Shown: positions 46,339-63,048, numbered from the stretch's first letter. The stretch: 64,000 nt of DNA from Candidatus Shapirobacteria bacterium (GCA_017991615.1 JAGOQF010000002.1:50750-114749); one strand, 5' to 3'. Program-made: numbers and translations. Notes: generated by a model not told the origin, from the letters alone.

Positions 46339-48807
46339 ATGTTATCATTAGCCATGAATTTTGTGGCATGGCATTATTTGAGAGGGTGGGAGTGGTATTG
46401 GGGTCGGGTGATCTTGAGGATAAAGAAGATTTTTCATTTTTTTTCTTTATCAATTTTAGTAAAAACTTTGTTTAAACCATGGAAAAGATTGGTAGTTGAT
46501 TATGAAGGGAGTTTTGATATAGGAAAGTTCTTTGAGAGAGTATCGTTTAATTTAATTTCATCGGCTATTGGATTTGTAGTAAGGATTAGCTTAGTAGGTT
46601 TTTGTATGTTGATAACAGTTGGGTATTTAATATTGGCGGTAGTGTGGTTTGGAGTGTGGTGGTTGATACCAGTATTTGGGTGGAGAGAGTATGTTAATGA
46701 CAAAAAAAGGTCAAAAATTTCGTTGGAGAAATTAAAAACTAAAATAAGAAATAATCCTGAGGAGGCAGGTAAATATTTGGTCGAAAGTGAGATGGGGAGA
46801 TTTATGTTGGGAAAAATAGAAAAAAATGTGTCGGAAGTACTTAGGGCAGTAAAACTAAAGAAAGGAGACATGTTTATTTTGGAAATAGACAGTTTGGAAG
46901 GATTGATTAGTTGGTTAATAAATCAAAGTGAGAATATAAAGGTGGGGTTTCAAAAGTTGAATGTATCTGAAGATGAATTGGTTTTGGCAGCGAGATGGTG
47001 GGATAAAAAGCAGAAAGATAGTCTGTTGGATAGTAGAGACAGTTTGGGTCGGCCAGGAATAGGTTGGGGTCTGATGTTTGGTTATACACCAACTTTAGAT
47101 AAATATAGTGAAGATTTAAGTATGGGTCAGTTTTTTTCTGGTAATTTAGTGGGAAGGGAAGAGGTAATAAAAAAGATGGGAGTGGCATTGGATAGTGGTA
47201 AAAGTATTTTATTAGTGGGTGATCCTGGGGTAGGGAAAATGACGGTAGTTTACGAATTTGCTGAGAGAGCGATTACAGGAAGATTGGGTCGATCTTTGGC
47301 TTATAAAAAACTGTTATGGTTGGATTATCAGGCGGCAGTGGCGGGGGTGGATGATAAGGATACTAAAAAAACGATATTTAAAAAATTATTGGTGGAAGCA
47401 GAGAGGGCAGGAAATGTAATCTTGGTAATAAAGGATTTATTTAGAATAACGAATGCGGAAGTAGAAGGTAATGATTATACAGATGTGTTTAGTTGGGCAT
47501 TGGAAAAGGGAGTAAGGGTAATTGCGGTGTCGGATAAATGGGAGTATGAGAAGTTTTTGGCTAGAGATTTGAGAATTTTGAAGGATTTTGAGATGGTGGA
47601 GGTGGTACCACCGACAAAGGATGAGGCAATGTTGATATTGATTGAAGCGGTGGAAAAGCTGGAGAAAAATAATAAAGTTAGAGTAACGGTGGGGGCATTA
47701 AAACAAATATTAGATGGAAGTGACAAGTATATAACCGAGACGCCATTTCCAGAAAAAGCAGTGGAATTATTGGGGATGGCGGTATCAAAATGGTCGGGGT
47801 CGAATAAAATTATTGGGGTAGAAGAGGCAAACCAAGTATTGTCGGAAAAGACGGGTTTACCGATAGGAATATTATCAGAAGAGGAAAAGGATAAATTAAA
47901 AAATTTGGAAGCAATAATGAGTGAAAAATTGATTGGTCAGAAAACAGCAGTTGATTTGATAGCCAAGAGTTTGAGAAGTAGATTGGCGGGGGGTAAGAGT
48001 GAGGAAAGACCGGTAGGATCATTTTTGTTTTTAGGGCCGACAGGAGTTGGAAAAACTCAGGCGGCTAAAGTGTTGGCTAATATTTATTTTGGATCGGAAA
48101 AAAATATTTTAAGGTTTGATATGGCAGAGTATTCTGAATCGGAATCTATTGGTAAATTGGTAGGGATATCAAGTCAGAATCAGCCAGGACTGATGACGAC
48201 AGCAATAAGAAATAAACCAGCAAGTTTATTGTTGTTGGATGAAATCGAGAAAGCTGATAGTAAGGTATACAACTTGTTTTTGACATTGCTAGATGAGGGT
48301 TATATAAACGATGAGTTAGGTAAAAAAGTAATCGGGAAGCATTTGTTTGTAGTAGCAACATCGAATGCGGCGGCGGGATATATTCGAGAGGAAGTAAAAA
48401 ACGGAGTTAGAGGAGAGGAATTGAGAAAAAAAGTTTTAAATTATGTTCAAGAACAGGGGATGTTTTCACCAGAGTTTTTGAATAGATTTGATGGGGTGGT
48501 AGTGTTTGAGCCATTGGAAAAAGAGAGTTTGATGTTGGTGGCGGAGTTGATGTTGACAGAATTAAAAGAAAGTTTATTAAAGAGAAATATTAATTTGAAA
48601 TTTGACGGTGGGGTGGTGGAGAAAATAGTTAGAGATGGTTATAGTTTAGAGTTGGGGGCAAGGCAAATGCGACGGGTAATAGAATTGGATTTGGGGGATG
48701 CGATTGGACAGGCGGTGATAAATGGTAAGATTGGTTCGGGAGATGAAGTGGTGATAGGAGTGGGTACAATAAATGATAAGTTTGTAGTAGGAAAAGAAAC
48801 TATTTAA
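46339..48807 (+). CDS. Clp/Hsp100-family double-AAA+ ATPase with N-terminal transmembrane anchor
   Basis: 822 aa. NBD1 LLVGDPGVGKMT, NBD2 FLFLGPTGVGKTQAAKVLA, and a hydrophobic N-terminal segment instead of the usual Clp N-domain. Confidence 0.6.
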   Translation: MLSLAMNFVAWHYLRGWEWYWGRVILRIKKIFHFFSLSILVKTLFKPWKRLVVDYEGSFDIGKFFERVSFNLISSAIGFVVRISLVGFCMLITVGYLILAVVWFGVWWLIPVFGWREYVNDKKRSKISLEKLKTKIRNNPEEAGKYLVESEMGRFMLGKIEKNVSEVLRAVKLKKGDMFILEIDSLEGLISWLINQSENIKVGFQKLNVSEDELVLAARWWDKKQKDSLLDSRDSLGRPGIGWGLMFGYTPTLDKYSEDLSMGQFFSGNLVGREEVIKKMGVALDSGKSILLVGDPGVGKMTVVYEFAERAITGRLGRSLAYKKLLWLDYQAAVAGVDDKDTKKTIFKKLLVEAERAGNVILVIKDLFRITNAEVEGNDYTDVFSWALEKGVRVIAVSDKWEYEKFLARDLRILKDFEMVEVVPPTKDEAMLILIEAVEKLEKNNKVRVTVGALKQILDGSDKYITETPFPEKAVELLGMAVSKWSGSNKIIGVEEANQVLSEKTGLPIGILSEEEKDKLKNLEAIMSEKLIGQKTAVDLIAKSLRSRLAGGKSEERPVGSFLFLGPTGVGKTQAAKVLANIYFGSEKNILRFDMAEYSESESIGKLVGISSQNQPGLMTTAIRNKPASLLLLDEIEKADSKVYNLFLTLLDEGYINDELGKKVIGKHLFVVATSNAAAGYIREEVKNGVRGEELRKKVLNYVQEQGMFSPEFLNRFDGVVVFEPLEKESLMLVAELMLTELKESLLKRNINLKFDGGVVEKIVRDGYSLELGARQMRRVIELDLGDAIGQAVINGKIGSGDEVVIGVGTINDKFVVGKETI

Positions 48808-50479
48808 CTTGTTCAAGGTTGATGATTCGTTGGAGGATGGCGAGGGAGCCGAGGGTAACGGGTTCGATACCACTTAGACCAAGATTAGAATCACCAAGAT
48901 TTTGAACAGAAGAAAAAGGGGTGTCGGAAGTGTAGTTGATAATACCAACGTCGTAAGGAGCGGAATTGAGATCAACAATGGTATTTTTGGGGGCTTGTTG
49001 ATCGTAAGTACCTTCGGTGATGGCAGAGAGATAGGGACCGGATTCCATTTCGATAACGGTAATATTGTTTTTGAGATAAAAATTGACTAAAGCTCGATTT
49101 TGGAGGAAGGTGCCAAGGACAGAAACGGCTCGTTGATTGGTTAGAATTGAACCTTGATGGTTGACAAAAGGAAAAAAGTTGTTGAAACAATTTTTGAAAA
49201 GATAGGAGTTTTGGGTGTGTTCGTCGAAAATTAGACGAGGAATTTGAATATCGCCAATTTCGCTGTTGAGAGTGGCGGCTTTGCCAAGTATGTAGACACC
49301 ATTGACATGGCGGACATTTTGCATGACTTCGCTAAGAATGTGATAGGCGGCAAAACCAAGAGGATAGTCAATATTGAAAATAAGAGCGGGGGATTTTTTG
49401 AGTTGAGAAGGACGGGTAATTTTGAGACGGGAATCAAGATGGGGGGAGGCAGGAATATTTTTGATAGGAATTATTTGGACGGTAATGTCGAGATATTCTT
49501 GATTGGGGATAGTAATAATGCCAAGTTGGCGTTGGAGCTTTTGATAGGCAGATTGATATTTAGGTTGATGGAGAAGATAACGAGAAGCATAGTAAAGAAA
49601 GTCGGTGAGATTAAGGCGGGTGTTGCCATCAATAATTTTTTGCCAGTGGTGGTAGAGATGAGGATGATGTTGGTGGATAAAATCAATAATTTGGGATTGG
49701 TGGGTGGTAGGAAAGCCGGTGATGGCATTGATAAGACTGTGAGTGTTGCTGGAAACAAAATAGATTTCTTGACGAGAAATGTGAAAAGTGGAAGAGACAG
49801 TAGCGGCGATATTTTTCCACCATCTTTGGGAGGTTTTGGTGTAATTAAGCCAGGAAGCAGATAGAAGTTGGATTTTTAGATCAAGAGGAGAGTGGTAGAT
49901 ATAACCAAGTTCTTGTTTCCAGTCGAAGCCAAGGGAGGTGAAAAATTTTTGCCAGGTATCGGAGGTGAGTTTGAATTTGTCCAAAAAAGCTGGGGTGTGA
50001 AAATCTTTAAGAAGAAGATTGAAAGATGAATAGTGTTTATGAAGAAGATGATTAAATTTGTTCCATTCAGTTTGGAAGGCAATAAGAATATTGACAAGGT
50101 CATCAATATCGGAGACAGAGGCAATGAGATAGGCAAGAGTTTTAGTTTTGGAATTGAAGTAAGCGACACGACGGCGGCTGTGAGCTTGGACTATTTGCCA
50201 AGAAAGGAGGTTGGCGTAACCGGCATCGGCATAAATTTCCGGGCTTTGACCAAGAACGATTTTGGAGATTTTGGCGGTAACTTGAGGAAGTCGATTGAGA
50301 CAATAAATTAGGGCGGAAAAATCGATCTCATCTGGGTCGGAAGCGAGAGGGTGAAGGAGTGATTTGAGGCGGAGGTAAGAAGGTTTGAGAGAGTGAATAG
50401 TGATTTCAAGATTGGATTTGAGAGCGGAACGGTAGGAACGGATATGGTTGGTAAGGGAATTAGTACCGGCTGAAGTCAT
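48800..50479 (-). CDS. Protein with C-terminal PNP_UDP_1 (nucleoside phosphorylase / AMP-nucleosidase-like) domain
   Basis: 559 aa. C-terminal GVYILGKAATLNSEIGDIQIP and ITVIEMESGPYLSAI match the phosphorylase-I fold motifs (GxAG...GDxxI; vEMEsaA). The N-terminal about 300 aa are unknown. Confidence 0.4.
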   Translation of the reverse strand: MTSAGTNSLTNHIRSYRSALKSNLEITIHSLKPSYLRLKSLLHPLASDPDEIDFSALIYCLNRLPQVTAKISKIVLGQSPEIYADAGYANLLSWQIVQAHSRRRVAYFNSKTKTLAYLIASVSDIDDLVNILIAFQTEWNKFNHLLHKHYSSFNLLLKDFHTPAFLDKFKLTSDTWQKFFTSLGFDWKQELGYIYHSPLDLKIQLLSASWLNYTKTSQRWWKNIAATVSSTFHISRQEIYFVSSNTHSLINAITGFPTTHQSQIIDFIHQHHPHLYHHWQKIIDGNTRLNLTDFLYYASRYLLHQPKYQSAYQKLQRQLGIITIPNQEYLDITVQIIPIKNIPASPHLDSRLKITRPSQLKKSPALIFNIDYPLGFAAYHILSEVMQNVRHVNGVYILGKAATLNSEIGDIQIPRLIFDEHTQNSYLFKNCFNNFFPFVNHQGSILTNQRAVSVLGTFLQNRALVNFYLKNNITVIEMESGPYLSAITEGTYDQQAPKNTIVDLNSAPYDVGIINYTSDTPFSSVQNLGDSNLGLSGIEPVTLGSLAILQRIINLEQVK

Positions 50480-50545: not shown

Positions 50546-52603
50546 ATGACAGAACGACCATCAGCAATTGAATTTATCAAACAGGCTAGTCAAGAGGCTA
50601 GACAGAAGGAAAATAATCAGAGAGTGGGTAGGATTGCTGAATTGTTGGTGAATAATGCGGGAGTGTTGGGAAGAACAATTGAGAAAGAAAAATCAGATCA
50701 GGTATGTGAAGCGGTGTTGGGAGTGTTTGGGGCAGGGTATAAATCAGTAGAGGAGATGAGCAATACTTTGAAAAATCCGAGCGCAACCGACAGGCAGAAG
50801 GAAATGGCAAAAGAGAATTTGGAAGTTTTAGGAAAGGGGATTTTTGTAGCAATGAACAGAACTTTTGCCAACTTTTCGGAAGAAGCCACAGAGACGATTA
50901 CGTCTCAGATGACTGGAGAACAGATAGATGAGTTTGTATTACCGGATCAGTTAAAAGGGGCAGGAAAGTATGTGGTGGAGGCTGATGGAAAGGCGACAGA
51001 TGAGGAAAAAAAGAAAGCTAAAGAGCTGGTTAGAAGTGGAGGAGGTAGGCGGAGAGATGGTTACTCACCACCATTTGTAGGTAGCGAGGATGATCAAAAC
51101 AAAGAAGTAAGGTCGTGGCAAATATCGCCTGAATATGCGGCTGAGGCAATGAAAAACATGGATCAAATGTATTGGCAATCTTATACACCTCCAGAGTGGA
51201 TGAAAGGTTTAGATTCGGAAACTCAGGCGAGAATTGAATGCATGATTGATATAAATATGGGGGCTGTTATTTTGGGTAAAGCTGGTAAGGATTTGGAAAG
51301 GATAAAGTTTAATGATATGTATTTTAAGTTTAATAATGAGAGATTGACGAAGTTATTTAATCCTAATTTTAAGCTGGCTTTGAGTAAAATGTTGAATGAT
51401 TTATGTGAGCTTTATAAGGATCGGAATGGACATATGTGTCTTAGATATAAGGAGGGAAAAGATAAAGATGGGAAGCCGGGGATATCGGAAGAAGTGTTAA
51501 GTAAGTTAAGAAATATTGCGAAATATAAGGAAGATTTGGCTAAATTTTTGGCTGAACAGGATAAAGGGAAGAAAGAACCACCTTATATTTATAGGATGAA
51601 TGCTTATACGGCTTGGAATTTGTTTTATATGTTTGGAGACTCAAGTGTGGCTGATAGAAGAAGGTCGTTGCCAACTTATGGGGGGATAATAAGCGATGCT
51701 CTAAGAACTCTTAATCCAGAATATAAGGCTTTGGGGAAATGGAAAGTTTCGAAAAATGATGTTCCAGAATCTAGCTTGGAAGCGGCGGAGTGGTTTGGAG
51801 GACCATTAGGGACTTACGTGCAGACGGTAATGCAGTTGGAGAGAAGTTTGGGAAGGCCATTGGATGGAACCAAGACGTTGAGAGAAAAGATTATAAGTGG
51901 TGATTTGCCAATATTGAAAGCCAAGACTTTTTATGGTTTCTTTGACTTTGTGGCTGGTGATAAGAATTTGTTTGATAAGAATGGGGTTAATTTCATTAAT
52001 AAAGGAAGAAAAGAAACTTTGGCTTCTTTGTTGATGTATTATGCTTTTGATAAGGATGGAAATTTTATATCAGATGAGAATAAACGGGAGGATTTTAGTT
52101 TTGGTCATAACCAGGTTGATTTTTTGAATTTATATAGAGATCAGATGGAAGCGGCGGTTTTGACATTTAAGGCGATGACGGGTAAATTGGATACTAAAGA
52201 TATCGGCGGTTATGTGTCGGATATAAGAACTGCTTTTGGGATGGTTGATGGGATTAGTGTAAATGGAGATCATCTTTATAAATACACAAAGGATTGGGGA
52301 ACGTGGGGAAGTATGTTGTTGGGGTCTTTTGGGGTGGATATGCAGAAGTTATCAACCGATTTTATTTATTTAAGAGTGACGCGACCTGAAGCTTATAGTA
52401 TTAATGTTGGTGATTTTTTATATAAGGATTTGGGGTTGATGGGAAGTGATGTTGATTTGACAAAATTGATGAGATTTTTAGGAGTTGATATTAGAGATGG
52501 GGAAAGGTATGATGGTTTGGGGGTATCTACGAGAACTGGAAAGAAGCGAATAGAGATAGAGAGAAGGACAAATATTCTTTATAGAAGAATTAGGCAAAAA
52601 TAG
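50546..52603 (+). CDS. Large hypothetical protein (divergent partner of the PNP-domain gene)
   Basis: 685-aa ORF with no recognisable motif. Confidence 0.35.
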   Translation: MTERPSAIEFIKQASQEARQKENNQRVGRIAELLVNNAGVLGRTIEKEKSDQVCEAVLGVFGAGYKSVEEMSNTLKNPSATDRQKEMAKENLEVLGKGIFVAMNRTFANFSEEATETITSQMTGEQIDEFVLPDQLKGAGKYVVEADGKATDEEKKKAKELVRSGGGRRRDGYSPPFVGSEDDQNKEVRSWQISPEYAAEAMKNMDQMYWQSYTPPEWMKGLDSETQARIECMIDINMGAVILGKAGKDLERIKFNDMYFKFNNERLTKLFNPNFKLALSKMLNDLCELYKDRNGHMCLRYKEGKDKDGKPGISEEVLSKLRNIAKYKEDLAKFLAEQDKGKKEPPYIYRMNAYTAWNLFYMFGDSSVADRRRSLPTYGGIISDALRTLNPEYKALGKWKVSKNDVPESSLEAAEWFGGPLGTYVQTVMQLERSLGRPLDGTKTLREKIISGDLPILKAKTFYGFFDFVAGDKNLFDKNGVNFINKGRKETLASLLMYYAFDKDGNFISDENKREDFSFGHNQVDFLNLYRDQMEAAVLTFKAMTGKLDTKDIGGYVSDIRTAFGMVDGISVNGDHLYKYTKDWGTWGSMLLGSFGVDMQKLSTDFIYLRVTRPEAYSINVGDFLYKDLGLMGSDVDLTKLMRFLGVDIRDGERYDGLGVSTRTGKKRIEIERRTNILYRRIRQK

Positions 52604-52611
52604 ATTTTTTA

Positions 52612-54372
52612 TTATGGTGGTGATGGTCCGCCTCCGCGTTCTCTATCTGTTCTATCACCTGCATGTTTGCCTCCGAGCATTCTGTTGGTGATACTAATTG
52701 CTCTTCTATATAGATTACTACCACTACCGCCTCCAACCTTTTGGTTGGCATAATCAATACCAGCTCTGATACCGGATGAAGCAGTGCTTTTGGTAAATTT
52801 ACCAAGACCGGCATAACTTTCACCGATAGCAGAGCCGAAGGCGTCGGGTTTGAGTTTAAAGATGGCTTCAGGGACAAGTTTGGGAAGGTTGGAAATCATG
52901 GCTAGTCCGGCGAGACCAATGCCGGCGGCAACAACACCCATAGGGTAACCAGCGATATCACCGGTAATGGTGATGAGATCAATCTGGCTGGGAATCCAAA
53001 GAGTTCCACCGCGGACAATTTCGGTAAGATAATTGAGAGCGACAATAAACAGACTAACTATAGGAAAGACAGAGATATTGGCAATAAGATCAATAATCCA
53101 AGAGGAAAAGCCTTGTTTGGCGGTTGGGAAAGCGCCGAGACCGATTTGGATAGGGCTGATAATGATTTTGAAAATAACAACAATATAACTTTTGAGAAGA
53201 CCAAAATAGAGTCTAATCATCCAGATAACCATAAGAACAGCCATGATGAGAGGAAATGAAAGCCAGCCGGCAATTCCGCCGACAACATCGCCAACTACAG
53301 CGCCAACTGTACCAACAACTCGACTGCCCAGTTGACCCAAAGCCGCTCCACCAATACCACCAAGAATGGTCCCGAGGAAGATTTGACCGGCAACTTCTCC
53401 AAGCATGAAGCCATAAATTGCAGGAATGGCTTGATTACTTAGTTCATAAATGGTGCCGAAGCTCATTCGGGATAGATTCTCCAGATTAGTGGGATGATGA
53501 TTAAAAAGACCAGCAATAGCTTCAATTCCTGCCCAGATTAGATCACCAATCCAAGTAAGCGGATTATTATTACTAATATCTATTGTGGTGGGAAATAAAT
53601 TACTGTTAAAATCGGCGTTACCCCTAGCGTTAAAGAAGACGGAGATACCGAGGGAAAGGACTAGTTTACTTAAATCGATGATTAGTCCGGCGATAGCGTA
53701 AGAAAAAGTAACTAAAATTAGAGTGGTAATGACTTTGGGGATGGTATTTTGAATGTTAACAACAGTTTGGGGATTAACTTTGACTCGAAGCATAATCATA
53801 ATACCAATAGTGACGAAAAATATAGAAATTAAAGCATAAACAAAATTGCGAATAGTACGCCAGAGAGGGAGGATGGGTTGAAGTCCTTGGAAACCGGTAT
53901 TTTGAGCGTAAGCAGGTTTACCAAGAAATTCGTTTTTGACTTGAGCTAGATATTCAACACCAGAAACCGGTTGGTAGTAAAGGCTGCTGATCATATTATT
54001 GGTAGTGCCAATAACTCCACCAGGGATGTAACCAGTGAAATTTATAGAACCGTCTTCTTGAAAAGGGATACCTCCGGTAAGCGAACCAAGAATACTAACT
54101 ATATTACTGGCAAGTGAAGAATCAAGCCAAGCTTCTTGGTTGTTACCTTTTTTGATGGCATCTTGTTTTTGTTTGATTAAATTTTGAGGGGTGTTAGTTT
54201 GATTTTGGTTGGTGGGGGTGTTGGTAATTTCGCTGGCGGTGATGGTTTTGATGGAAAGAAAGAGACTAAAACCAGAGATGATTATTAGGAAAGCGGTGAA
54301 AAAGAATTTTTTGGAAGGGATGAGGCGGGTGGAGCGGAGGTTGAGATGATGGAGTAGTTGTTTGAAGGTCAT
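52612..54372 (-). CDS. Polytopic membrane protein, VirB6/TrbL-like candidate of T4SS-like locus
   Basis: 586 aa. Signal/TM, Q/N/T-rich spacer, at least 8 TM helices with Gly-rich loops, and a Gly/Arg C-tail. Operon context with pilin-like genes. Confidence 0.4.
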   Translation of the reverse strand: MTFKQLLHHLNLRSTRLIPSKKFFFTAFLIIISGFSLFLSIKTITASEITNTPTNQNQTNTPQNLIKQKQDAIKKGNNQEAWLDSSLASNIVSILGSLTGGIPFQEDGSINFTGYIPGGVIGTTNNMISSLYYQPVSGVEYLAQVKNEFLGKPAYAQNTGFQGLQPILPLWRTIRNFVYALISIFFVTIGIMIMLRVKVNPQTVVNIQNTIPKVITTLILVTFSYAIAGLIIDLSKLVLSLGISVFFNARGNADFNSNLFPTTIDISNNNPLTWIGDLIWAGIEAIAGLFNHHPTNLENLSRMSFGTIYELSNQAIPAIYGFMLGEVAGQIFLGTILGGIGGAALGQLGSRVVGTVGAVVGDVVGGIAGWLSFPLIMAVLMVIWMIRLYFGLLKSYIVVIFKIIISPIQIGLGAFPTAKQGFSSWIIDLIANISVFPIVSLFIVALNYLTEIVRGGTLWIPSQIDLITITGDIAGYPMGVVAAGIGLAGLAMISNLPKLVPEAIFKLKPDAFGSAIGESYAGLGKFTKSTASSGIRAGIDYANQKVGGGSGSNLYRRAISITNRMLGGKHAGDRTDRERGGGPSPP

Positions 54373-57107: not shown

Positions 57108-57464
57108 TTAATTAGAGTCGATTTTGAATATGGTGACATCGATACCGGTAAATTCTTTGATGAAAAGAAGGATTAACCAGGAAACAATGATGCCAATAAT
57201 ACCAATGACAGCGTAGGTGAGGGTGGTGGAAGCGGCAGCAACTTTTTTGGGGTCGCCGCCAGAGGTGAGATATTTGAAACCGCCGACGATGAGCATGGCT
57301 AAGGAGACGAAGCCGGCAAGGCTGACAATGACAGTAATGATGTTTTGAAAAAGACATTCAAGGCCTTTGATGGTGGCGACACCGTCGGAAACACAATTGC
57401 CAGACCAGGCTTTAGTTTGGGCTAGTGCGGGGTGAGGTAAAAAAAATTTGATGATTGAATTCAT
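57108..57464 (-). CDS. VirB2/TrbC-like mini-pilin paralogue 1
   Basis: 118 aa. Signal-like N-terminus, two hydrophobic helices separated by a conserved GGFKYLTSGGDPKKV loop. Paralogous to the five downstream genes. Confidence 0.5.
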   Translation of the reverse strand: MNSIIKFFLPHPALAQTKAWSGNCVSDGVATIKGLECLFQNIITVIVSLAGFVSLAMLIVGGFKYLTSGGDPKKVAAASTTLTYAVIGIIGIIVSWLILLFIKEFTGIDVTIFKIDSN

Positions 57465-57487
57465 AAATTAATTATACAATAGACCAA

Positions 57488-57516
57488 CAAAAAACCCGCC
57501 GGAGAGGCGGGTTTTA
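57488..57516 (-). terminator. Rho-independent terminator (bidirectional hairpin) after pilin paralogue 2
   Basis: aaaacccgcc-ggagag-ggcggg-tttt. GC stem with flanking A-run and T-run. Confidence 0.6.
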
Positions 57517-57530
57517 AAAGATAACTAATT

Positions 57531-57911
57531 TTATTTGAAAGTGGGAATAGTTAGACCCTTGAGAATGTCAATACCAAAGATGGTACCGATAAGTTTCATA
57601 ATGGCCCAAGCGGCAAAGACGATAGCCAAACCAATGAGAGCGTTGGTAATTTGAGCGCGGGCTTCGCCGACCTTTTTTTCATCACCGCCAGAAGTAACCC
57701 ATTTAAGACCGCCCCAAACTAAAATGAAGAAGAAAACTAAAGCGACTACAATTAGAACCAAACTGACAGCACCAGAAACAATACCGCCAACAGTAAGGTC
57801 ACTAAGAGGTTTAAAATCTTGAGTTTTTGACTCTATTTTAAGAGTCTCTTGGGCGTAAATAGGGGCAGCAATAGCTGCGTATTGGATTTGTTGTTTGAGT
57901 TTGTTGAGCAT
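57531..57911 (-). CDS. VirB2/TrbC-like mini-pilin paralogue 2 (candidate major pilin)
   Basis: 126 aa. LVWGGLKWVTSGGDEKKVGEA...ALIGLAIVFAAWAI. Followed by a strong terminator. Confidence 0.5.
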   Translation of the reverse strand: MLNKLKQQIQYAAIAAPIYAQETLKIESKTQDFKPLSDLTVGGIVSGAVSLVLIVVALVFFFILVWGGLKWVTSGGDEKKVGEARAQITNALIGLAIVFAAWAIMKLIGTIFGIDILKGLTIPTFK

Positions 57912-57961
57912 ATTTTAATTATAATAATTAATTAATTAATAATAACAGTTTTCTAAAAATA

Positions 57962-58315
57962 TTAAAGAGAAGGCCAAACTAATTGAAGATTTTGGAGATT
58001 AGGAATACCAAAGACAACACCAACAAATTTAAGAATGGCGAAAATGGCAAAGACTAGAATTAGACCGATAAAAGCATAAAGAATTGAACTTTGAGCTTGC
58101 TTCCATTTGTCGGGATTGCCTTGAGAAGCAATCATATGATAAGCATACATAATAAAGTGCCAGATGAAGTAGAGAACAGCGACGATGAAAAAAATAGAAA
58201 TAATGCTTTGAATAGCATTATTGACATAATTAGAGGGATTAGAAACAATGCTGTTAGAGTCGGGGAGAACAGGATTATTAATTTGAGCAAAAATAGGTGG
58301 GATAATTTTAATCAT
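57962..58315 (-). CDS. VirB2/TrbC-like mini-pilin paralogue 3
   Basis: 117 aa. MIASQGNPDKWKQA...AFIGLILVFAIFAI. Confidence 0.45.
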   Translation of the reverse strand: MIKIIPPIFAQINNPVLPDSNSIVSNPSNYVNNAIQSIISIFFIVAVLYFIWHFIMYAYHMIASQGNPDKWKQAQSSILYAFIGLILVFAIFAILKFVGVVFGIPNLQNLQLVWPSL

Positions 58316-58316
58316 A

Positions 58317-58676
58317 TTAAGGTTGATTTTTAGGCATAATATTTTGGATACTAAGCGGATCTTTGATACCTAGAAGACTGGCAATGAAAGCGCCAACACC
58401 AAGAGCGACAACGATAATGGTCAGGCCAAGAATACCGTTGGTAAGACGACTACGGGCGGCTTCAATTTTATCTTTGTTTCCTTGGGCGGAAATAAATGAA
58501 TAACCAGCAAAAATAACCTGAATAATGAAGTAAATAACAGCAACGATAGTCAGAATTCCAATGATTTGACTGAGAAAACCTTCAAGAGGTTTGGCAGGAT
58601 TACTTAAATCTGGTTTGAGACCAGGACCTTCAAGTTTGTAAGTAGTATCAGCAATCAAGGGTTTAGTTAGGACCAT
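58317..58676 (-). CDS. VirB2/TrbC-like mini-pilin paralogue 4 (start revised to internal Met)
   Basis: The listed ORF 58317..58751 overlaps the upstream paralogue by 89 nt. Starting at Met26 (MVLTKPL...) gives a 14-nt overlap and a paralogue-like length. SAQGNKDKIEAA loop motif. Confidence 0.4.
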   Translation of the reverse strand: MVLTKPLIADTTYKLEGPGLKPDLSNPAKPLEGFLSQIIGILTIVAVIYFIIQVIFAGYSFISAQGNKDKIEAARSRLTNGILGLTIIVVALGVGAFIASLLGIKDPLSIQNIMPKNQP

Positions 58677-58983
58677 AAATGATGGGTTCAATAATGTTAA
58701 TGTTAAGAATTGAGCCAACGACACTGGTAAGAATGAAAGCTCCGGCAACAATAATTAGACCGATAAGACTTTGGGTGATTTTATTCAAGGCGGCTTCAGT
58801 TTTTTTGGGATCACCACTACTGGAAAGATAGCCGTAACCAGCTATAATTAATTGGGCCACAAAGAAAAGACCGGCAATAACACCGGCCAGTTTGAAAATA
58901 TTGGATAAGAGAAGAAATAATCCAGAACCGCCTTGACTGTTGTAATTGGTTGGATTGGAGATGCTACCAAAGATTGCGAGCAT
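58663..58983 (-). CDS. VirB2/TrbC-like mini-pilin paralogue 5
   Basis: 106 aa. IIAGYGYLSSSGDPKKTEAA...LIGLIIVAGAFIL. Confidence 0.45.
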   Translation of the reverse strand: MLAIFGSISNPTNYNSQGGSGLFLLLSNIFKLAGVIAGLFFVAQLIIAGYGYLSSSGDPKKTEAALNKITQSLIGLIIVAGAFILTSVVGSILNINIIEPIIYGPN

Positions 58984-58989
58984 AAGTTA

Positions 58990-59334
58990 TTATAAACCAG
59001 AATCAAGAATTTTGACGCCAGTAACCAAACTAATAATTTGAATGATAAAATAAGCAGAAAAAACGACGGCAAAACCGATAAGAGCACTACTGATGGCCTG
59101 TTGAGCTTGGGCGGTTTTTTTAGAATCAGCGGAACCGGCGTTGATAATCATGCTGATGCCACCAAAAATAAGCAAACAAAGAAAAATAATTCCGGCTAAG
59201 GTAAGAGAGTTTTTGAGAAGAGAGTTGATTAGGGGGCTAGCGGTGTTATATTTAGGACCGACGGCGGTGCCACTGTTGTCAAGAAGATTGTTGCCGATAT
59301 TGACTTGAGCTAAAAGAGATGATGTCATTGGCAA
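58990..59334 (-). CDS. VirB2/TrbC-like mini-pilin paralogue 6
   Basis: 114 aa. IFGGISMIINAGSADSKKTAQA...ALIGFAVVFSAYFI. Confidence 0.45.
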   Translation of the reverse strand: MPMTSSLLAQVNIGNNLLDNSGTAVGPKYNTASPLINSLLKNSLTLAGIIFLCLLIFGGISMIINAGSADSKKTAQAQQAISSALIGFAVVFSAYFIIQIISLVTGVKILDSGL

Positions 59335-59469
59335 AATTATACCCTAAAGAAGAAAAAAAATGAATTGATGACAATAAGGGTTGATTTGGTTAAACTAGTG
59401 CTATAATACGGCACTTTAATAAACTTTTGTGAAGTTTAAGTTTATAAGGTTTTAAAGTAGAATTAAAAT

Positions 59470-60396
59470 ATGAAAAAAATAACTGCCCTATTATATATAG
59501 TATTAAGCATAAGTTTTTTAGGTTTGGTAATGAAGGTTGAGGCAAGGAAATCGGAAAGGTTGATAACATCAACAGAGGTGATGGTAAAAAGTTTGAGTTT
59601 GAGTCCGATGCCGACAGGAATGGTAGCAACTGAGACAGCTGAAGTGATTGAAGTGGTGCCAACTTTGGCGTCGGTAGTAAACATTAAAGAAGAACCAAAA
59701 GCAAATGAGTTGGATTATAAGTCGGAAAAATGGAATGGTTTAAACACTTTGAAGGTGGCGATTGGTTGGGCGGTGACTAGGGGGATTTCGACTAACACAT
59801 TGGTACTATTGTTGTTATTACCGTTGGTGGCAACATTGGTGTCATTCTTGCATTATGTAGTAGGGTTATCAGGATATGGGATTTTTATGCCGACAATGGT
59901 GGCAGTAACATTTTTGGCGACGGGAATTCCGGGGGGATTGGTGTTGTTTGGGGTAATTTTACTATTATCATTAGCGAGCAAATCAGTTTTAAGAAGGTTG
60001 AAACTTCATTTTTGGCCGGCGAGATCGATAGGGTTGATAATAATTTCGATAGGGACATTTGTGTTTATGGTGTGGTCGTCGTTTCTAAGTGATATTGATA
60101 TAAGTCAGGTGTCAATTTTCCCGATTACGTTTATGATTTTGTTGGCAGAGGAGTTTACTCGAACTCAACTGATAAAGAGTAAAAAAGAAGCCAAAAAACT
60201 AATGATGGGGACAATTATTTTGGCATTGGCGGGAGCAGTAATGATGGATTCGGCTTGGATTCAGAACTTGGTTTTGAGATACCCCGATTTAATATTGGTT
60301 TTGATATTAGTGGCAAACTTGGCGATAGGAAATTATAGCGGAATTAGATGGTCGGAAATAGCTCGGTTTAAGAAAGGGATTAGGGAAAGGAAGTAG
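59470..60396 (+). CDS. Polytopic (about 7TM) membrane protein with N-terminal extracytoplasmic segment
   Basis: 308 aa. Signal peptide, about 100-aa soluble segment, then 6-7 TM helices. First gene of the ATP-grasp/peptidase module. Confidence 0.45.
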   Translation: MKKITALLYIVLSISFLGLVMKVEARKSERLITSTEVMVKSLSLSPMPTGMVATETAEVIEVVPTLASVVNIKEEPKANELDYKSEKWNGLNTLKVAIGWAVTRGISTNTLVLLLLLPLVATLVSFLHYVVGLSGYGIFMPTMVAVTFLATGIPGGLVLFGVILLLSLASKSVLRRLKLHFWPARSIGLIIISIGTFVFMVWSSFLSDIDISQVSIFPITFMILLAEEFTRTQLIKSKKEAKKLMMGTIILALAGAVMMDSAWIQNLVLRYPDLILVLILVANLAIGNYSGIRWSEIARFKKGIRERK

Positions 60397-60418
60397 TTGA
60401 TAATTTTTTAAAAACTTT

Positions 60419-61777
60419 ATGTTTAGTTTAAAAAAATATCATCGATTTTTGACAAAGAACGAAAGGAATAAGGTATATTTGCGTAAAAATACGGCTGTTG
60501 GCAAGGCAATTGCCGATAGCAAATATAGAACTAAAAAAAAGTTGATGGCGGCGGGAGTATCGGTACCGACATTGATAGCTAGATTTAAGAATCAAGATGA
60601 TTTAAATAATTTTAGGTGGGAAAAACTGGAGGGTAATTTTGTGATTAAACCGGAATCAGGATATGGTGGTGAGGGGATTTTGATTATTAGAAAAAGAGGT
60701 AAGTGGGCGGGGGAATGGTTGAGAATGAATGGTGAAATGTTGACAACGGCTGATTTGCAAAGGCATTGTCAGGATATATTGGTAGGAAAATACAGTTTAC
60801 ACAATATACCAGATACAGTGTTGGTGGAAGAGCGGATAAAAATTCATCCATTGTTTTTGGCGTTAACTAAGTCGGGAACCCCGGATATTAGAGTGATTGT
60901 TTATAACCGAGTGCCAGTAATGGCCATGTTTCGGATTCCGACGGAAAAGTCTGGGGGTAAGGCTAATCTCCACCAAGGGGCGATGGGATTGGGAGTGGAT
61001 TTGGCGACAGGAATAACCACTTTTGGAATTGAGGGCGGGGGAGTGCCAGTGACTCGGATTTATGATTTTAATAAAAAGAAAAAAAGAAAAGTTAATGGGA
61101 TAAAGATTCCATTTTGGCGGGAGATTTTAGAAACGGCAGTAAAATGTCAGATAGCCTTGCCAGAGTTGGGATATATGGGGGTAGATGTGGTATTGGACAA
61201 AGAGAAAGGTCCGGAAGTGTTGGAGGTAAATGCCAGACCAGGATTATCGATTCAACTGTGTAATCGGGCAGGGTTGAGAGCGAGATTGGAAAAGGTGGAT
61301 GAGATAGAAGTAAGGAGTGTGGATCATGCGATAACTTTGGCAAAATATTTGTTTGGAGAGAGATTCTTTGAGAAAGTGGATGAGAAAGAAAAAAATCGTT
61401 TGATTGAAGCGGTGGAAAATATCAAGATAAAGATTCCCAAGGGATTTAAGCCAGAGTTTGATAAAAGCAAGATTTTGAAGAAAGGGAAACATCGGATGAT
61501 TGAAGTAAAAGCTAAGGTGGATACCGGAGCATTGAGAAGTTCGATAGATCGAAAATTGGCTGAACAGTTGGGGTTGTTGACTGAGGAAAGAATTTTGTAT
61601 TATCGTCATTATCGGTCGGCGTTGGGCAAGGCGCATGAAAGACCGGTGGTTTGGTTGACTTTTTGGCTTAAGGGTAAAAAGATTTCAACAGCGGCAAATG
61701 TGGCCAATCGGGAAGGGTTAAGTTCTCAGTTTTTGATTGGAAGAAGGGATTTAACTGGATTTTTAATTAAAAATTAA
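60419..61777 (+). CDS. ATP-grasp (RimK/alpha-L-glutamate-ligase-like) fused to C-terminal retropepsin-like aspartic peptidase (DUF785 family)
   Basis: 452 aa. ATP-grasp motifs (FVIKPESGYGGEGI; NLHQGAMGLGVDLATG; LEVNARPGL). C-terminal AKVDTGALRSSID contains the D-T-G-A aspartic protease signature. Confidence 0.6.
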   Translation: MFSLKKYHRFLTKNERNKVYLRKNTAVGKAIADSKYRTKKKLMAAGVSVPTLIARFKNQDDLNNFRWEKLEGNFVIKPESGYGGEGILIIRKRGKWAGEWLRMNGEMLTTADLQRHCQDILVGKYSLHNIPDTVLVEERIKIHPLFLALTKSGTPDIRVIVYNRVPVMAMFRIPTEKSGGKANLHQGAMGLGVDLATGITTFGIEGGGVPVTRIYDFNKKKKRKVNGIKIPFWREILETAVKCQIALPELGYMGVDVVLDKEKGPEVLEVNARPGLSIQLCNRAGLRARLEKVDEIEVRSVDHAITLAKYLFGERFFEKVDEKEKNRLIEAVENIKIKIPKGFKPEFDKSKILKKGKHRMIEVKAKVDTGALRSSIDRKLAEQLGLLTEERILYYRHYRSALGKAHERPVVWLTFWLKGKKISTAANVANREGLSSQFLIGRRDLTGFLIKN

Positions 61778-61785
61778 TAAATAAG

Positions 61786-62667
61786 ATGAATAAAATTGCA
61801 GTTTTTGGAGGCAATGTAAATGGAAGTAAATTTTTGGAACTTAAAGCGGCGGCAGAAAAATTGAGGGTGGAATTGGATTTGATTTCGTTTAAAGAATTGA
61901 CGTTTGAAACCGAAACTGGAAGGGTATTTTTTAGAAACCATGAAATTGGAGGTTACGATGTTTATTTTTTTAGAAATAATAAAACTTATTGGGAAGAAAC
62001 CAGCTTAATTTTGGATCAGTTGGATGAGAGTAAAATAATTTTGGATCCGGTTATTAAAAGATGTCGACAGAGTGATGTTTGTAAAGCACATCAAATGGTA
62101 GTTTTGAGCCAAGCGGGATTGCCGGTGCCAAAAACTGTTTATGGGAGTTTGAAATTTTTAAAAAAGGAAGATTTGAGTAAATTTGAATTTCCGTTGATTA
62201 TTAAAGGAAGTCGGGGAGACAGGAGAAGGCAAGTATTTAAAGTATATGGTCAAAAGGATTTAACAGAGAGAATCAGGGAAATAAAAGAGATAGAAAAGAG
62301 AGGTGAAAATAAATATATGTTGCAGGAATATATTGTGAATACCAGGGATTATCGAGTGATGGTGGTGGGAGGAGAGGTATTGGGAGTGATGGTGAGAGCG
62401 ATTGGTGATAACCCTAGGTTGAAGAATGTGTTTGAGAAAAGTGATTTGCCGGAGGAGGTAAAGAAAATGGCGGTGGAGGCGGCCAGAGTGTGTGGGATAA
62501 CGGTGGCGGGGGTGGATGTGGTGTTTAGGGATGATGAAATAACCAAACCGCTTTTGTTTGAGGTGAATAAGACCCCGAACTACACTAGATTTGAGGAAGT
62601 AATGGGAATAAGTGTGGCAGAAGTGGTGGTAAAATTTTTGGCAAAGGTTAGAAATGAGGGTGTTTAA
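61786..62667 (+). CDS. RimK-like ATP-grasp ligase (alpha-L-glutamate ligase family)
   Basis: 293 aa. PLIIKGSRGDRRRQV, DYRVMVVGGEV, GVDVVF...FEVNKTP are typical RimK/ATP-grasp motifs. Confidence 0.6.
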   Translation: MNKIAVFGGNVNGSKFLELKAAAEKLRVELDLISFKELTFETETGRVFFRNHEIGGYDVYFFRNNKTYWEETSLILDQLDESKIILDPVIKRCRQSDVCKAHQMVVLSQAGLPVPKTVYGSLKFLKKEDLSKFEFPLIIKGSRGDRRRQVFKVYGQKDLTERIREIKEIEKRGENKYMLQEYIVNTRDYRVMVVGGEVLGVMVRAIGDNPRLKNVFEKSDLPEEVKKMAVEAARVCGITVAGVDVVFRDDEITKPLLFEVNKTPNYTRFEEVMGISVAEVVVKFLAKVRNEGV

Positions 62668-62705
62668 TTTTGACTGGGATGTTGGTAGAATAGGATTACT
62701 TTTGA

Positions 62706-62779
62706 GGGTGATTAGCTCAGTTGGTTAGAGCACCGTCCTGATAAGACGGGGGTCGGAGATTCGAGTTCTCCATCACCCA
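62706..62779 (+). tRNA. tRNA-Ile (anticodon GAU)
   Basis: Acceptor GGGTGAT/ATCACCC, D-arm GCTCAGTTGGTTAGAGC, anticodon stem CCGTC/GACGG with loop CTGATAA, T-loop GATTCGAGTTC. Confidence 0.8.
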
Positions 62780-63048
62780 CAAGTTGAGTTGAAAGTTTAT
62801 CAAGTTCATCAAGTTTATAAAGATCTCAGATCTCAGATCCGTCGGTGGGCGGACAGGTATCAGATAATAACATTTTAGCTTGACAACATTTTTACCATCA
62901 TTCAACCTCCATAAAATCCACTCAGCGTTGCGGGGGGAAAATATTGTCGGCGCTAAAATTAGATGTCAGTTTGTCAGATGTCAGTTTCTTGGATCTCAGG
63001 AAAACATTGATATAAAGGATGGGTATGGTTGGGTGGTAGAATTGTCTA
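62780..63048. repeat. Composite intergenic repeat locus
   Basis: GTTnnTCAA 9-mers, cagatctcag repeats, tccgtcggtgggcgga hairpin, TIR element copy 3 (62873-62958), and agatgtcag repeats. Confidence 0.75.
62873..62958. mobile_element. About 86-bp TIR element, copy 3 (most diverged centre)
   Basis: Termini ttttagcttgacaacattttt ... aaaatattgtcggcgctaaaa are conserved. The interior shares ataaaatccactcagcg with copy 2. Confidence 0.5.

Follow-up and report, generated by a model that had tools for sequence, protein, structure and literature searches.

A Rlo/Rim-like module of Patescibacteria that joins a retropepsin-like peptidase to an ATP-grasp ligase beside a 7TM protein

Three consecutive genes of a Patescibacteria (Shapirobacteria-like) cell form one operon, which encodes a 7TM membrane protein, an ATP-grasp ligase fused to a retropepsin-like peptidase, and a second, RimK-like ligase. 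This module, located in the window (the whole stretch of DNA analysed, 64,000 nucleotides), represents a rearranged variant of the rloABC and RimK/RimB make-and-trim systems. We lean, by a small degree, toward the view that it makes and trims, at the membrane, a peptide or tail that is acidic and probably consists of oligo-glutamate. The families themselves are known; the CPR architecture departs from the known systems in its peptidase-ligase fusion, a 7TM protein devoid of a transglutaminase domain, and extra RimK-like ligases. The features are listed in Table 1.

Three open reading frames were confirmed on the + strand, at 59470-60396 (308 aa), 60419-61777 (452 aa) and 61786-62667 (293 aa), with spacings of 22 nt and then 8 nt. 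They are co-directional and tightly packed, as a sequence-only reading had described them, and its proposal of an amidoligase/peptidase module with a membrane partner is backed by Pfam matches of all three genes. The spacer upstream of the first gene holds TTGATT...TGCTATAAT-like elements and is presumed to serve as the promoter region of the module. A promoter and terminator scan yielded nothing above chance, and the PADLOC defence-system models gave zero matches.

Table 1. Coordinates of the module and of its upstream spacer in the window
Feature	Position	Strand	Basis or remark
Divergent intergenic region, 135 nt	59335..59469	.	between first T4SS pilin gene (-) and 7TM gene (+)
RloB-like 7TM membrane protein (gene 1)	59470..60396	+	PF14402, 8e-25, aa 110-302
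ATP-grasp ligase domain, aa 1-300, RloC/TIGR02291-like clade (gene 2)	60419..61318	+	PF14397, TIGR02291
Linker, aa 301-355, without hydrophobic segment (gene 2)	61319..61483	+	AF2, TM prediction
Retropepsin-like (RimB/RloA-type, PF05618) aspartic peptidase domain, aa 356-452 and stop codon (gene 2)	61484..61777	+	
Codons of catalytic motif D368-T-G-A371	61520..61531	+	within KVDTGALRSSI, 61514-61546
Codons of G441-R-R-D444, second retropepsin hallmark (hydrophobic-hydrophobic-G-R-D/N)	61739..61750	+	
Second ATP-grasp ligase, RimK/LysX/MptN-like, accessory component (gene 3)	61786..62667	+	PF08443, 1.7e-19

Judged by its sequence, gene 1 is the 7TM half of RloB. PF14402 (7TM_transglut) matches it with 88 bits (cut-off 25) and is also the only domain of 528 homologues with lengths of ~290 aa. 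Of the 508 positions of the NCBIfam RloB model, only 312-505 align (64.8 bits; cut-off 900), such that the inactive transglutaminase domain of RloB is missing. Residues 1-25 resemble a signal peptide and are followed by an extracytoplasmic stretch of ~85 aa that is Thr/Pro-rich, poorly conserved and of low complexity; the N-terminal ~85 aa are disordered in the AF2 model. According to hydropathy and the AF2 helices, the C-terminal part is a 7-helix core ending in a basic tail. Its conserved motifs are HY128-129, GYGIFMPTM135-143, HFWPAR180-185, EEFxRTQ227-233 and GNYxGIR287-293, and the polar ones map to the predicted cytoplasmic face. Because the model is of moderate confidence (pLDDT 65.5) and a fold search found no solved structural relative, a transport role for this protein is a conjecture.

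Gene 2 appears, from its domain matches, to specify an RloC/TIGR02291-type amidoligase joined to a RimB/RloA-type retropepsin, both of them active-looking. In the ligase half, PF14397 (ATPgrasp_ST) covers aa 17-294 (2.9e-62; 210.9 bits against a cut-off of 31.4), and TIGR02291 is by far the best NCBIfam match (8.3e-78), its 261.6 bits lying under the trusted cut-off of 314.2. The domain is modelled by AF2 with a pLDDT of ~85-95, and its best solved folds are those of RimK (4iwx, 5zct and 5zk6; E 5e-11), as well as ArgX and LysX. RimK emerged by the fold search only, a single-sequence PDB search with the ligase domain giving nothing at E<=0.01. Conservation was assessed in 82 sequences, i.e., the window and 81 species-level loci. 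The ATP-binding Lys (K77) and the Mg-binding triad (D256, E269 and N271) are kept in 81-82 of the 82. Grouping with housekeeping enzymes, which the sequence-only reading had named as a possible refutation, was found for neither ligase: Ddl scored 27 bits (cut-off 243) and cyanophycin synthetase 21-37 bits (cut-offs 850-877), and these models overall gave 16-37 bits against cut-offs of 243-877.

The peptidase half carries both elements of the clan AA motif pair, VDTGA at aa 367-371 and FLIGRRD at aa 438-444, the latter as FLIGRRDL near the C-terminus. PF05618 matches at aa 385-448 with 28.0 bits, just above its cut-off of 27, and Asp_protease_2 was also matched (1.3e-4). D368, T369 and G370 are invariant across 121 close homologues; in the wider set, they are found in 77, 81 and 81 of the 82 sequences, respectively, a few of which have N or K at the catalytic Asp position. 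Likewise, 81 of 82 sequences keep G441, and 77 of 82 have R or K at position 442. Searched as a profile, the domain matches RloA (9g59, E 2e-5; 9g58), ApRick and Lpg0085 (2pma). The AF2 model of aa 332-452 is all-beta with a short C-terminal helix (pLDDT ~77-92), and a Foldseek search against BFVD retrieved a phage "acid protease" (E 2.7e-8, TMt 0.69) in addition to DDI1-type, caulimovirus and spumavirus proteases, so that phage and retro-element aspartic proteases are among the matches. A chance DTGA tetrapeptide is thus ruled out by the invariance in the 121 homologues, the RloA matches and the AF2 fold; the catalytic Asp aligns and is conserved, and the aspartic-protease motif pointed out earlier is genuine. 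The domain is predicted to be cytoplasmic: it comes after the cytoplasmic ATP-grasp domain, and neither a signal nor a TM segment was found in its chain (no TM segment was found in the RimK-like protein, either). Its pI is basic (~10-10.8), as is that of the entire fusion protein. The charge of the domain, once considered a sign of an acidic substrate, was dropped as uninformative because the whole protein is basic.

Gene 3 belongs, on sequence grounds, to the RimK/LysX clade of ligases. It retains the GVDVV...FEVN motif, is orthologous (44-45% identity) to the first of two paralogues in two related loci (L001 and L002), and has PDB sequence matches to LysX (3vpd, 5e-10) and RimK of P. aeruginosa (7qyr, 6.7e-10). 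TIGR00768 gave 106.6 bits (cut-off 143.4), MptN 89 bits and LysX 75 bits. Scores for the RimK family and S6 equivalog models stay below their cut-offs, and that of the broad Pfam RimK-like domain alone is high enough. Of the earlier label "RimK-type glutamate ligase", the RimK-like ATP-grasp (PF08443) stands, whereas these scores do not establish a specificity for glutamate.

At least 595 species-level genomes have the module, and the 80 best-matching loci all look like Patescibacteria. HMMs built from the pilins of the window, the 7TM protein, the RimK-like protein and the two fusion domains were run across the 82 loci. Across these loci (37-81% identity, many CPR classes), the fusion gene is immediately preceded by the 7TM gene in 78, so that the gene-neighbourhood check suggested by the sequence-only reading yields a near-invariant pair. 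RimK-like genes are present in 0-2 copies per locus, being downstream in 52 of the 81 related loci and missing from about a third. A gene for a MATCAP/DUF1704 carboxypeptidase (PF08014, 2.6e-14) lies downstream in 11 loci, which suggests a substrate whose C-terminus is free and open to editing; the window has no such gene. No conserved acidic-tailed small ORF or LysW-like carrier was found near the module in the 82 loci. The sole conserved small ORF near it encodes a single-TM peptide and is shared by six close relatives. Elsewhere, the domains are fused in other ways, as retropepsin+7TM, double-retropepsin+7TM and a triple retropepsin+7TM+ATPgrasp_ST (P0267), which suggests that the retropepsin, 7TM and ATP-grasp domains work together. 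Many "stand-alone" peptidase matches are fragments of fusion proteins at contig ends.

The PF05618/7TM/ATP-grasp gene triad was reportedly first described by Iyer et al. in 2009, and our literature search on PF14402, TIGR02291 and PF14397 returned no papers. The statement in the sequence-only reading that the role of such a system is experimentally unknown is outdated for the family, given the trimming of poly-Glu by RimB (PMC11957791) and the phenotypes of rloABC and cleavage by RloA (PMC12239564). The rloABC operon of Pseudomonas aeruginosa and P. fluorescens affects hypo-osmotic tolerance, biofilm formation and antibiotic tolerance; RloA cuts Glu-rich peptides, and defects of the triple rloA mutant are suppressed when either rloB or rloC is lost (Lormand et al., mBio 2025, PMC12239564). 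The module resembles it in having a PF05618 DTG peptidase, a PF14402 7TM protein and a PF14397, TIGR02291-like ATP-grasp in one operon, and RloA (9g59 and 9g58) is the best solved match of its peptidase domain. However, RloA stands alone, bears a signal peptide and is secreted, whereas the peptidase of the window is fused to the C-terminus of a cytoplasmic ligase. In addition, RloB has an N-terminal inactive transglutaminase where the 7TM protein of the window has the ~85-aa Thr/Pro-rich stretch, and the module adds RimK/LysX-like ligase genes. The hosts also differ, as 96% of RloB matches were reported from Proteobacteria (PMC12239564) and the window comes from Patescibacteria.

The second known system pairs RimK with RimB, an endopeptidase that depends on its DTG, requires about 6 Glu in a row, boosts poly-alpha-L-Glu synthesis by RimK and stimulates the RimK ATPase by binding (Little et al., JBC 2025, PMC11957791). 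A RimB-RimK hybrid, RimBK, is proteolytically active and was reported mainly in Flavobacteriales and Rhodobacterales (PMC11957791). Like the module, this system combines an ATP-grasp ligase and a retropepsin-like endopeptidase located in the cytoplasm, and it includes a ligase-peptidase fusion; moreover, RimK is the nearest solved fold of the gene 2 ligase, and gene 3 is RimK/LysX-like. In contrast, the peptidase of RimBK is N-terminal to a true RimK, whereas that of the window follows a TIGR02291-like ligase at the C-terminal end. A membrane partner is absent from the Rim systems, and their equivalog and family cut-offs are not reached by either ligase of the window.

Further parallels are found in Chloroflexota retropepsin+7TM proteins and the triple fusion (P0188, P0199, P0208, P0144 and P0267), whose peptidases are of one family with that of the window (E 1e-10 to 1e-23 with the CPR profile) and whose partners are PF14402 and PF14397, as in the window. 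There, an N-terminal anchor precedes the peptidase and then the 7TM core, such that the peptidase should be outside, while that of the window should be inside. The peptidase is secreted in Proteobacteria; on these topology predictions, it would be borne on the outer end of the 7TM protein in Chloroflexota and shifted to the cytoplasmic side here. In the LysX/ArgX-LysW system, ATP-grasp ligases act on a protein C-terminal carboxylate, and LysX/ArgX are among the top fold and sequence matches of the module, but no LysW-like carrier is encoded near it. In the tubulin cycle, an ATP-grasp ligase (TTL) is opposed by a MATCAP-family carboxypeptidase; the related loci with a downstream MATCAP-family gene offer an analogy to this cycle, one not shared by the window.

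In the mechanism that we slightly favour, the cytoplasmic ATP-grasp domain would activate a carboxylate with ATP and add amino acids, most probably L-glutamate, to give an alpha-linked acidic oligopeptide or C-terminal tail. The RimK/LysX-like paralogue might prime or extend the same chain. Since there is one DTG per fusion chain, the peptidase domains would have to pair between two chains before cutting within the acidic chain. This cut would set the chain length or release the chain, and the domain may also stimulate the ligase as RimB does RimK. The 7TM protein would dock the enzyme at the membrane and would probably pass the product outward. Points that speak against this make-and-trim scheme are the scores of gene 2 under the TIGR02291 trusted cut-off and of gene 3 under the RimK cut-offs, the lack of a conserved acidic-tailed small ORF or carrier among the 82 loci, the moderate confidence of the 7TM model, and the N or K at the catalytic Asp position of a few homologues; the basic pI of the peptidase domain does not discriminate.

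There is a small chance that the target is instead an envelope glycopolymer, a lipid-linked precursor or a peptidoglycan stem, which the module would decorate without making free or protein-borne poly-Glu. The ATP-grasp enzymes would then load amino acids onto a sugar or lipid carrier, to be flipped outward by the 7TM protein, and the peptidase would edit the peptide part. Consistent with this, Pfam labels the ligase family "sugar-transfer associated", and the 7TM core is rich in conserved polar residues, as would befit a transporter or enzyme. Moreover, rlo mutants of P. aeruginosa have cell-shape, beta-lactam and hypo-osmotic defects, and the rlo operon of Vibrio belongs to the VxrAB cell-wall regulon (PMC12239564). 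In 23 loci, a PBP1A gene of the same orientation also follows at a distance of ~4 kb, but PBP1A, RuvC and YebC are lineage-restricted neighbours that look like ordinary synteny. Against this reading, the nearest solved folds (RimK, LysX/ArgX) work on peptide or protein C-termini, and poly-Glu chains are the only demonstrated substrates of related peptidases.

A conventional polyglutamylation and trimming of ribosomal protein S6 (RpsF), similar to that by RimK/RimB or RimBK, with the 7TM gene as a passenger or regulator, has a smaller chance still. Membership of gene 3 in the RimK/LysX clade, the cytoplasmic peptidase as in RimB, and the known active RimB-RimK hybrids all agree with it. Nonetheless, the S6-ligase equivalog (NF007764, cut-off 331) scored 38.3 bits for gene 3 and 12.9 bits for gene 2, the latter also being low in TIGR00768 (43.9 bits against 143.4). 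The RimK-like gene is missing from about a third of loci, unlike the 7TM+fusion pair; the peptidase is joined to a TIGR02291-type ligase in an order opposite to that of RimBK, and in other phyla it is extracytoplasmic. A search with an E. coli S6 sequence did not find rpsF in the window or related loci.

It is quite improbable that the peptidase mainly processes the fusion protein itself, or acts as an allosteric partner of the ligase, rather than trimming a product. Retropepsins in polyproteins do free themselves by self-cleavage, and the linker is flexible (AF2 pLDDT <50 at aa 316-324) and partly acidic (EKVDEKEK). It also has a conserved LFGExFFEKV motif. Against self-cleavage, it lacks the run of six Glu that RimB requires. 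Stimulation of the RimK ATPase by RimB binding would fit an allosteric partner, while retention of the catalytic motif in 77 of 82 species argues for catalysis. Self-processing and product trimming can in any case coexist.

The module is flanked by six VirB2-type T4SS pilin genes (PF18895), which are not type IV pilins. They occupy 57108-59334 on the - strand with their start codons toward the module; the arrangement is hence head-to-head and divergent, not convergent as previously stated. At >=55% identity, 10 of 13 loci have a pilin gene within 2 kb (of the remaining three contigs, two are too short to tell), and L012 keeps the adjacency in rearranged form, its pilins lying both upstream, on the same strand, and immediately downstream. 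At <55% identity, none of the 58 loci flanked by >=5 kb on one side has a pilin gene that close, and only two carry any at all, >8 kb away. The adjacency is confined to the Shapirobacteria clade, and a pilin tie as a general functional link was dropped. In F and VirB2 pilins, the termini face outward. Modification of the adjoining pilins or of other pilus or envelope proteins, as conceived in the sequence-only reading, is very improbable, for it has nothing beyond this clade-level synteny across the 135-nt spacer, the pilin C-termini are neither acidic nor conserved and would by analogy lie outside while both ligases are cytoplasmic, and a survey of Patescibacteria T4SS names no such genes among T4SS components.

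Rlo bears on antibiotic tolerance, biofilm and cell shape in Pseudomonas, and the persistence of the module in such reduced genomes suggests that it has an important part in the envelope or in physiology. With the ligase and peptidase on one soluble polypeptide and a stripped-down 7TM partner, the chemistry should be easier to reconstitute. The location of the peptidase, inside the membrane here and outside in other phyla, constrains models of how the family acts. There is a modest chance that many Patescibacteria, for all their minimal genomes, carry a small apparatus for synthesising, cleaving and exporting a short acidic peptide by way of a 7TM conduit. In that case, Rlo-type ligases would yield a product that crosses the membrane, the CPR fusion would offer the simplest setting for identifying it, and in Shapirobacteria the product might act on the adjacent T4SS pilus or at the host interface.

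The module consists of three genes in one orientation, separated by intergenic gaps of 22 and 8 nt, and was first described in a sequence-only reading as an amidoligase/peptidase module. In NCBIfam, ORF 1 aligns with RloB just over the C-terminal 7TM region (model positions 312-505 out of 508). Amino acids 17-294 of ORF 2 are matched by PF14397 (ATPgrasp_ST, 2.9e-62) in Pfam, where PF05618 scores 28.0 bits against a cut-off of 27 and general aspartyl-protease models also match amino acids 362-448. The NCBIfam model TIGR02291 ('alpha-L-glutamate ligase-like') matches the same protein at 8.3e-78, and the RloA2 and RloA3 models match it weakly. ORF 3 falls under the NCBIfam cut-offs for the RimK family, MptN and LysX alike. 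The models for Ddl and cyanophycin synthetase, housekeeping enzymes with which a grouping of the ligases would have spoken against that reading, score far under their NCBIfam cut-offs.

Features of the window and of related species-level loci carrying the fusion gene (prefix L)
Feature	Position	Strand	Basis or remark
VirB4/TraG-P-loop ATPase	27223-29511	+	
dnaA	33643-34983	-	
Six-Glu run	41280-41297	+	Inside ORF 40356-43301
Large conserved protein	48800-50479	-	
Large conserved protein	50546-52603	+	
Large conserved protein	52612-54372	-	
VanY+SpoIID cell-wall hydrolase, 744 aa	54873-57107	-	Adjoins pilin genes
Six tandem VirB2-type T4SS pilin genes	57108-59334	-	PF18895
ORF 1, 7TM protein, 308 aa	59470-60396	+	PF14402 (7TM_transglut) 8e-25, Pfam
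ORF 2, ligase-peptidase fusion, 452 aa	60419-61777	+	PF14397 + PF05618, Pfam
KVDTGALRSSI, retropepsin hallmark 1	61514-61546	+	Translation
FLIGRRDL, retropepsin hallmark 2	61730-61753	+	Translation
ORF 3, RimK-like ATP-grasp, 293 aa	61786-62667	+	PF08443 1.7e-19, Pfam
tRNA-Ile gene	62706-62780		3' of module
Small ORF, 42 aa	63704-63832	+	Downstream of module
Second RimK-like paralogue	L001:10485-11423; L002:10610-11524		Followed by GH18 gene
MATCAP/DUF1704 gene (example)	L057:13520-14875		
L012 pilin genes	L012:902-3154 and L012:12248-13318		

The DTGA sequence in ORF 2 proved to be a genuine aspartic-protease motif, as judged from the second hallmark, its conservation and matches to RloA structures. 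D368, T369, G370, R373, S374, S375 and D377 are invariant in 121 close homologues, and F438, L439, G441, D444, L445 and F448 are kept in 120 of the 120 homologues that have a residue at the position. Across the window and 81 species-level loci of 37-81% identity, the D, T and G of the motif are retained in 77, 81 and 81 of the 82 sequences, and the ligase residues K77, D256, E269 and N271 in 81-82. A 15-sequence profile of the peptidase domain matched two crystal structures of RloA, 9g59 (E 2e-5) and 9g58, and, more weakly, ApRick and Legionella Lpg0085. In the AF2 model of the whole fusion protein (mean pLDDT 85.6), a flexible linker joins the ATP-grasp domain to a C-terminal domain that is all-beta. 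The best Foldseek alignments of the ligase part were to RimK (4iwx, 5zct, 5zk6) and ArgX/LysX; among viral models the C-terminal part matched a phage 'acid protease' (E 2.7e-8, TMt 0.69) as well as DDI1-type, caulimovirus and spumavirus proteases. Given these motifs, conserved residues, profile matches and fold matches, both domains look active.

Homologues of ORF 1 (n=528, ~290 aa) carry PF14402 as their sole domain. The N-terminus resembles a signal peptide and is followed by a poorly conserved Thr/Pro-rich stretch, disordered in the model, and then by a highly conserved helical core with the polar motifs HY128-129, GYGIFMPTM, HFWPAR, EEFxRTQ and GNYxGIR. Since the loops at 173-185 and 232-243 are K/R-rich and the C-terminal tail is basic, the positive-inside rule suggests an N-out/C-in topology, which would place the polar motifs at the cytoplasmic face, on the same side as the fusion enzyme. 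A structure search found no solved structures resembling the 7TM model.

The fusion protein's close homologues bear the names Candidatus Shapirobacteria or Woesebacteria. When a single genome was scanned for each species, relatives turned up in at least 595 species, the best 80 of which are Patescibacteria (CPR) of many classes: Shapiro-, Woese-, Levy-, Moran-, Nomura-, Kerfeld-, Dojka- and Saccharibacteria and Paceibacterota. The label 'Gammaproteobacteria' is attached to some co-assembly MAGs whose gene content is clearly CPR-like; L003, L004, L006, L007 and other co-assembly loci are titled 'uncultured Gammaproteobacteria/Pseudomonadales/Bdellovibrionales' despite a CPR-type module, and such titles seem to be placeholders that cannot be relied on.

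Gene neighbourhoods were compared over the 82 loci by ORF calling and purpose-built HMMs. The ligase-peptidase fusion is present in 82/82, and in 78 the 7TM gene lies immediately upstream on the same strand; in the other four, the 7TM gene is nearby but past the distance rule (two) or the fusion gene is at a contig end (two). By clustering, a RimK-like gene follows in 52/81 loci in one or two copies, that of the window being an orthologue of the first paralogue only. The two-paralogue loci L001 and L002 are more distant relatives (68-75% identity), whose second copy is ~30% identical to the first. The window has a single copy, as do L003 and L004, its closest relatives; in the window, tRNA-Ile comes next (cf. 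62668-63048). Eleven distant CPR loci (L021, L025, L029, L038, L040, L057, L067, L068, L070, L071 and L074) have a MATCAP/DUF1704 metallocarboxypeptidase gene (PF08014, 2.6e-14) downstream of the fusion, five of them lacking the RimK-like gene, an arrangement that recalls the ligase-carboxypeptidase pairing of TTL/MATCAP. Other recurrent neighbours are lineage-dependent housekeeping genes (RuvC, YebC, RuvB, PBP1A, L7/L12, L10 and DsbA-like). From these counts, the 7TM and fusion genes are the conserved unit, with the additional ligase or the carboxypeptidase as an accessory. The small ORF encodes a single-TM peptide with no family assignment; besides the window, five close Shapirobacteria loci (L002, L003, L004, L006 and L008) conserve it downstream of the module.

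The neighbouring pilin array had been described as convergent with the module; its genes lie on the - strand and are therefore divergent from it. Pilin genes occur within 2 kb of the module in 10 of the 13 loci with at least 55% identity (of the remaining three, two are on contigs too short to tell) and in 0 of the 58 loci with lower identity and enough flank. The adjacency, thus confined, is clade-level synteny. Close relatives L003-L007, of up to 81% protein identity, share the same pilin arrays. In L012 (Shapirobacteria, 57% identical), six pilin genes lie ~6 kb upstream on the same strand and two directly 3' of the RimK-like gene; proximity has therefore outlasted rearrangement within the clade.

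Together with the hydrolase, the VirB4/TraG ATPase and dnaA, the pilin genes form an origin-proximal T4SS-like region, in agreement with a survey of Patescibacteria that reported T4SS clusters with VirB2 arrays near dnaA (PMC12102498). The T4SS components given in that survey include no ATP-grasp genes (PMC12102498). The stretch from a ClpB-like gene to the pilin array encodes three large conserved proteins: a DUF6909 protein (8.7e-163) and two, of 685 and 586 aa, that match nothing in Pfam; the 586-aa protein is polytopic and may be a VirB6-like channel component. Strand asymmetry is extreme at 37500-62700. Every gene tested there, irrespective of its own strand, has a third-position GC skew on the + strand between +0.5 and +0.88, in most cases above 0.7, and at the upper end synonymous sites hold about 10 G for each C. 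To the left of ~36 kb, values are lower (0.1-0.6) and never negative, and codon-position skew compared over the whole window showed no sign change at dnaA.

In the rloABC operon of Pseudomonas, RloA is a secreted retropepsin that cleaves Glu-rich peptides, RloB an inactive transglutaminase joined to a 7TM protein, and RloC an ATP-grasp protein; deletion of rloB or rloC suppresses a triple rloA mutant (Lormand et al., PMC12239564). RimB is a DTG-dependent endopeptidase that requires ~six contiguous Glu and stimulates poly-alpha-L-Glu synthesis by RimK, and there is an active hybrid in which RimK follows an N-terminal RimB (Little et al., PMC11957791). The sole encoded six-Glu run of the window belongs to a 981-aa DUF4012 protein, a conceivable candidate substrate because its run equals this reported minimum. 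Our literature search found no published account of the CPR 7TM and ligase-peptidase fusion architecture. The window's fusion differs from Rlo and Rim in domain order and clade, and the module differs from Rlo in its predicted cytoplasmic peptidase, truncated RloB, accessory ligases and CPR hosts. Nevertheless, it is a variant of the known Rlo/Rim kind and no new class of system.

A peptidase-profile search over 1.84 billion representative proteins gave only 610 matches. Their architectures include ATPgrasp_ST plus peptidase, as in the window; peptidase plus 7TM, in Chloroflexota; two peptidase domains plus 7TM; a triple fusion of peptidase, 7TM and ATPgrasp_ST; and class I LysRS plus peptidase. 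The last is P0229, a 539-aa protein from a JGI metagenome in which this retropepsin-like domain ends a class I lysyl-tRNA synthetase (PF01921); the fusion may be genuine or may have arisen as an artefact of assembly or gene calling. In the Chloroflexota proteins and the triple fusion, an N-terminal anchor helix precedes the peptidase. Because seven helices separate it from the ATP-dependent ligase, the peptidase of the peptidase-7TM and triple fusions should be extracytoplasmic, consistent with secreted RloA. That of the window follows a soluble ligase in a protein with no hydrophobic segment and so should be cytoplasmic; this location is the chief structural difference from known systems.

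We consider a 'make-and-trim' system most likely. We observed only homology, conserved catalytic residues, gene linkage and fusions, and infer a role in transport and the identity of both the amino acid and its acceptor. The ligase domain would build an alpha-linked acidic chain, probably of Glu, which the RimK/LysX-like enzyme may prime or extend and which peptidase domains paired across two chains would cut; the 7TM partner would dock the enzyme and probably conduct the product outward. The module that the sequence-only reading described is confirmed, and its interpretation is supported in part. That the module decorates an envelope polymer seems unlikely, and classical S6 modification quite unlikely. 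We give little credence to the peptidase acting in self-processing or regulation. Modification of the pilins, which that reading had thought conceivable from their adjacency, is very improbable. As a form of the Rlo/Rim kind that is both widespread and compact, the CPR module could help to identify the Rlo product.
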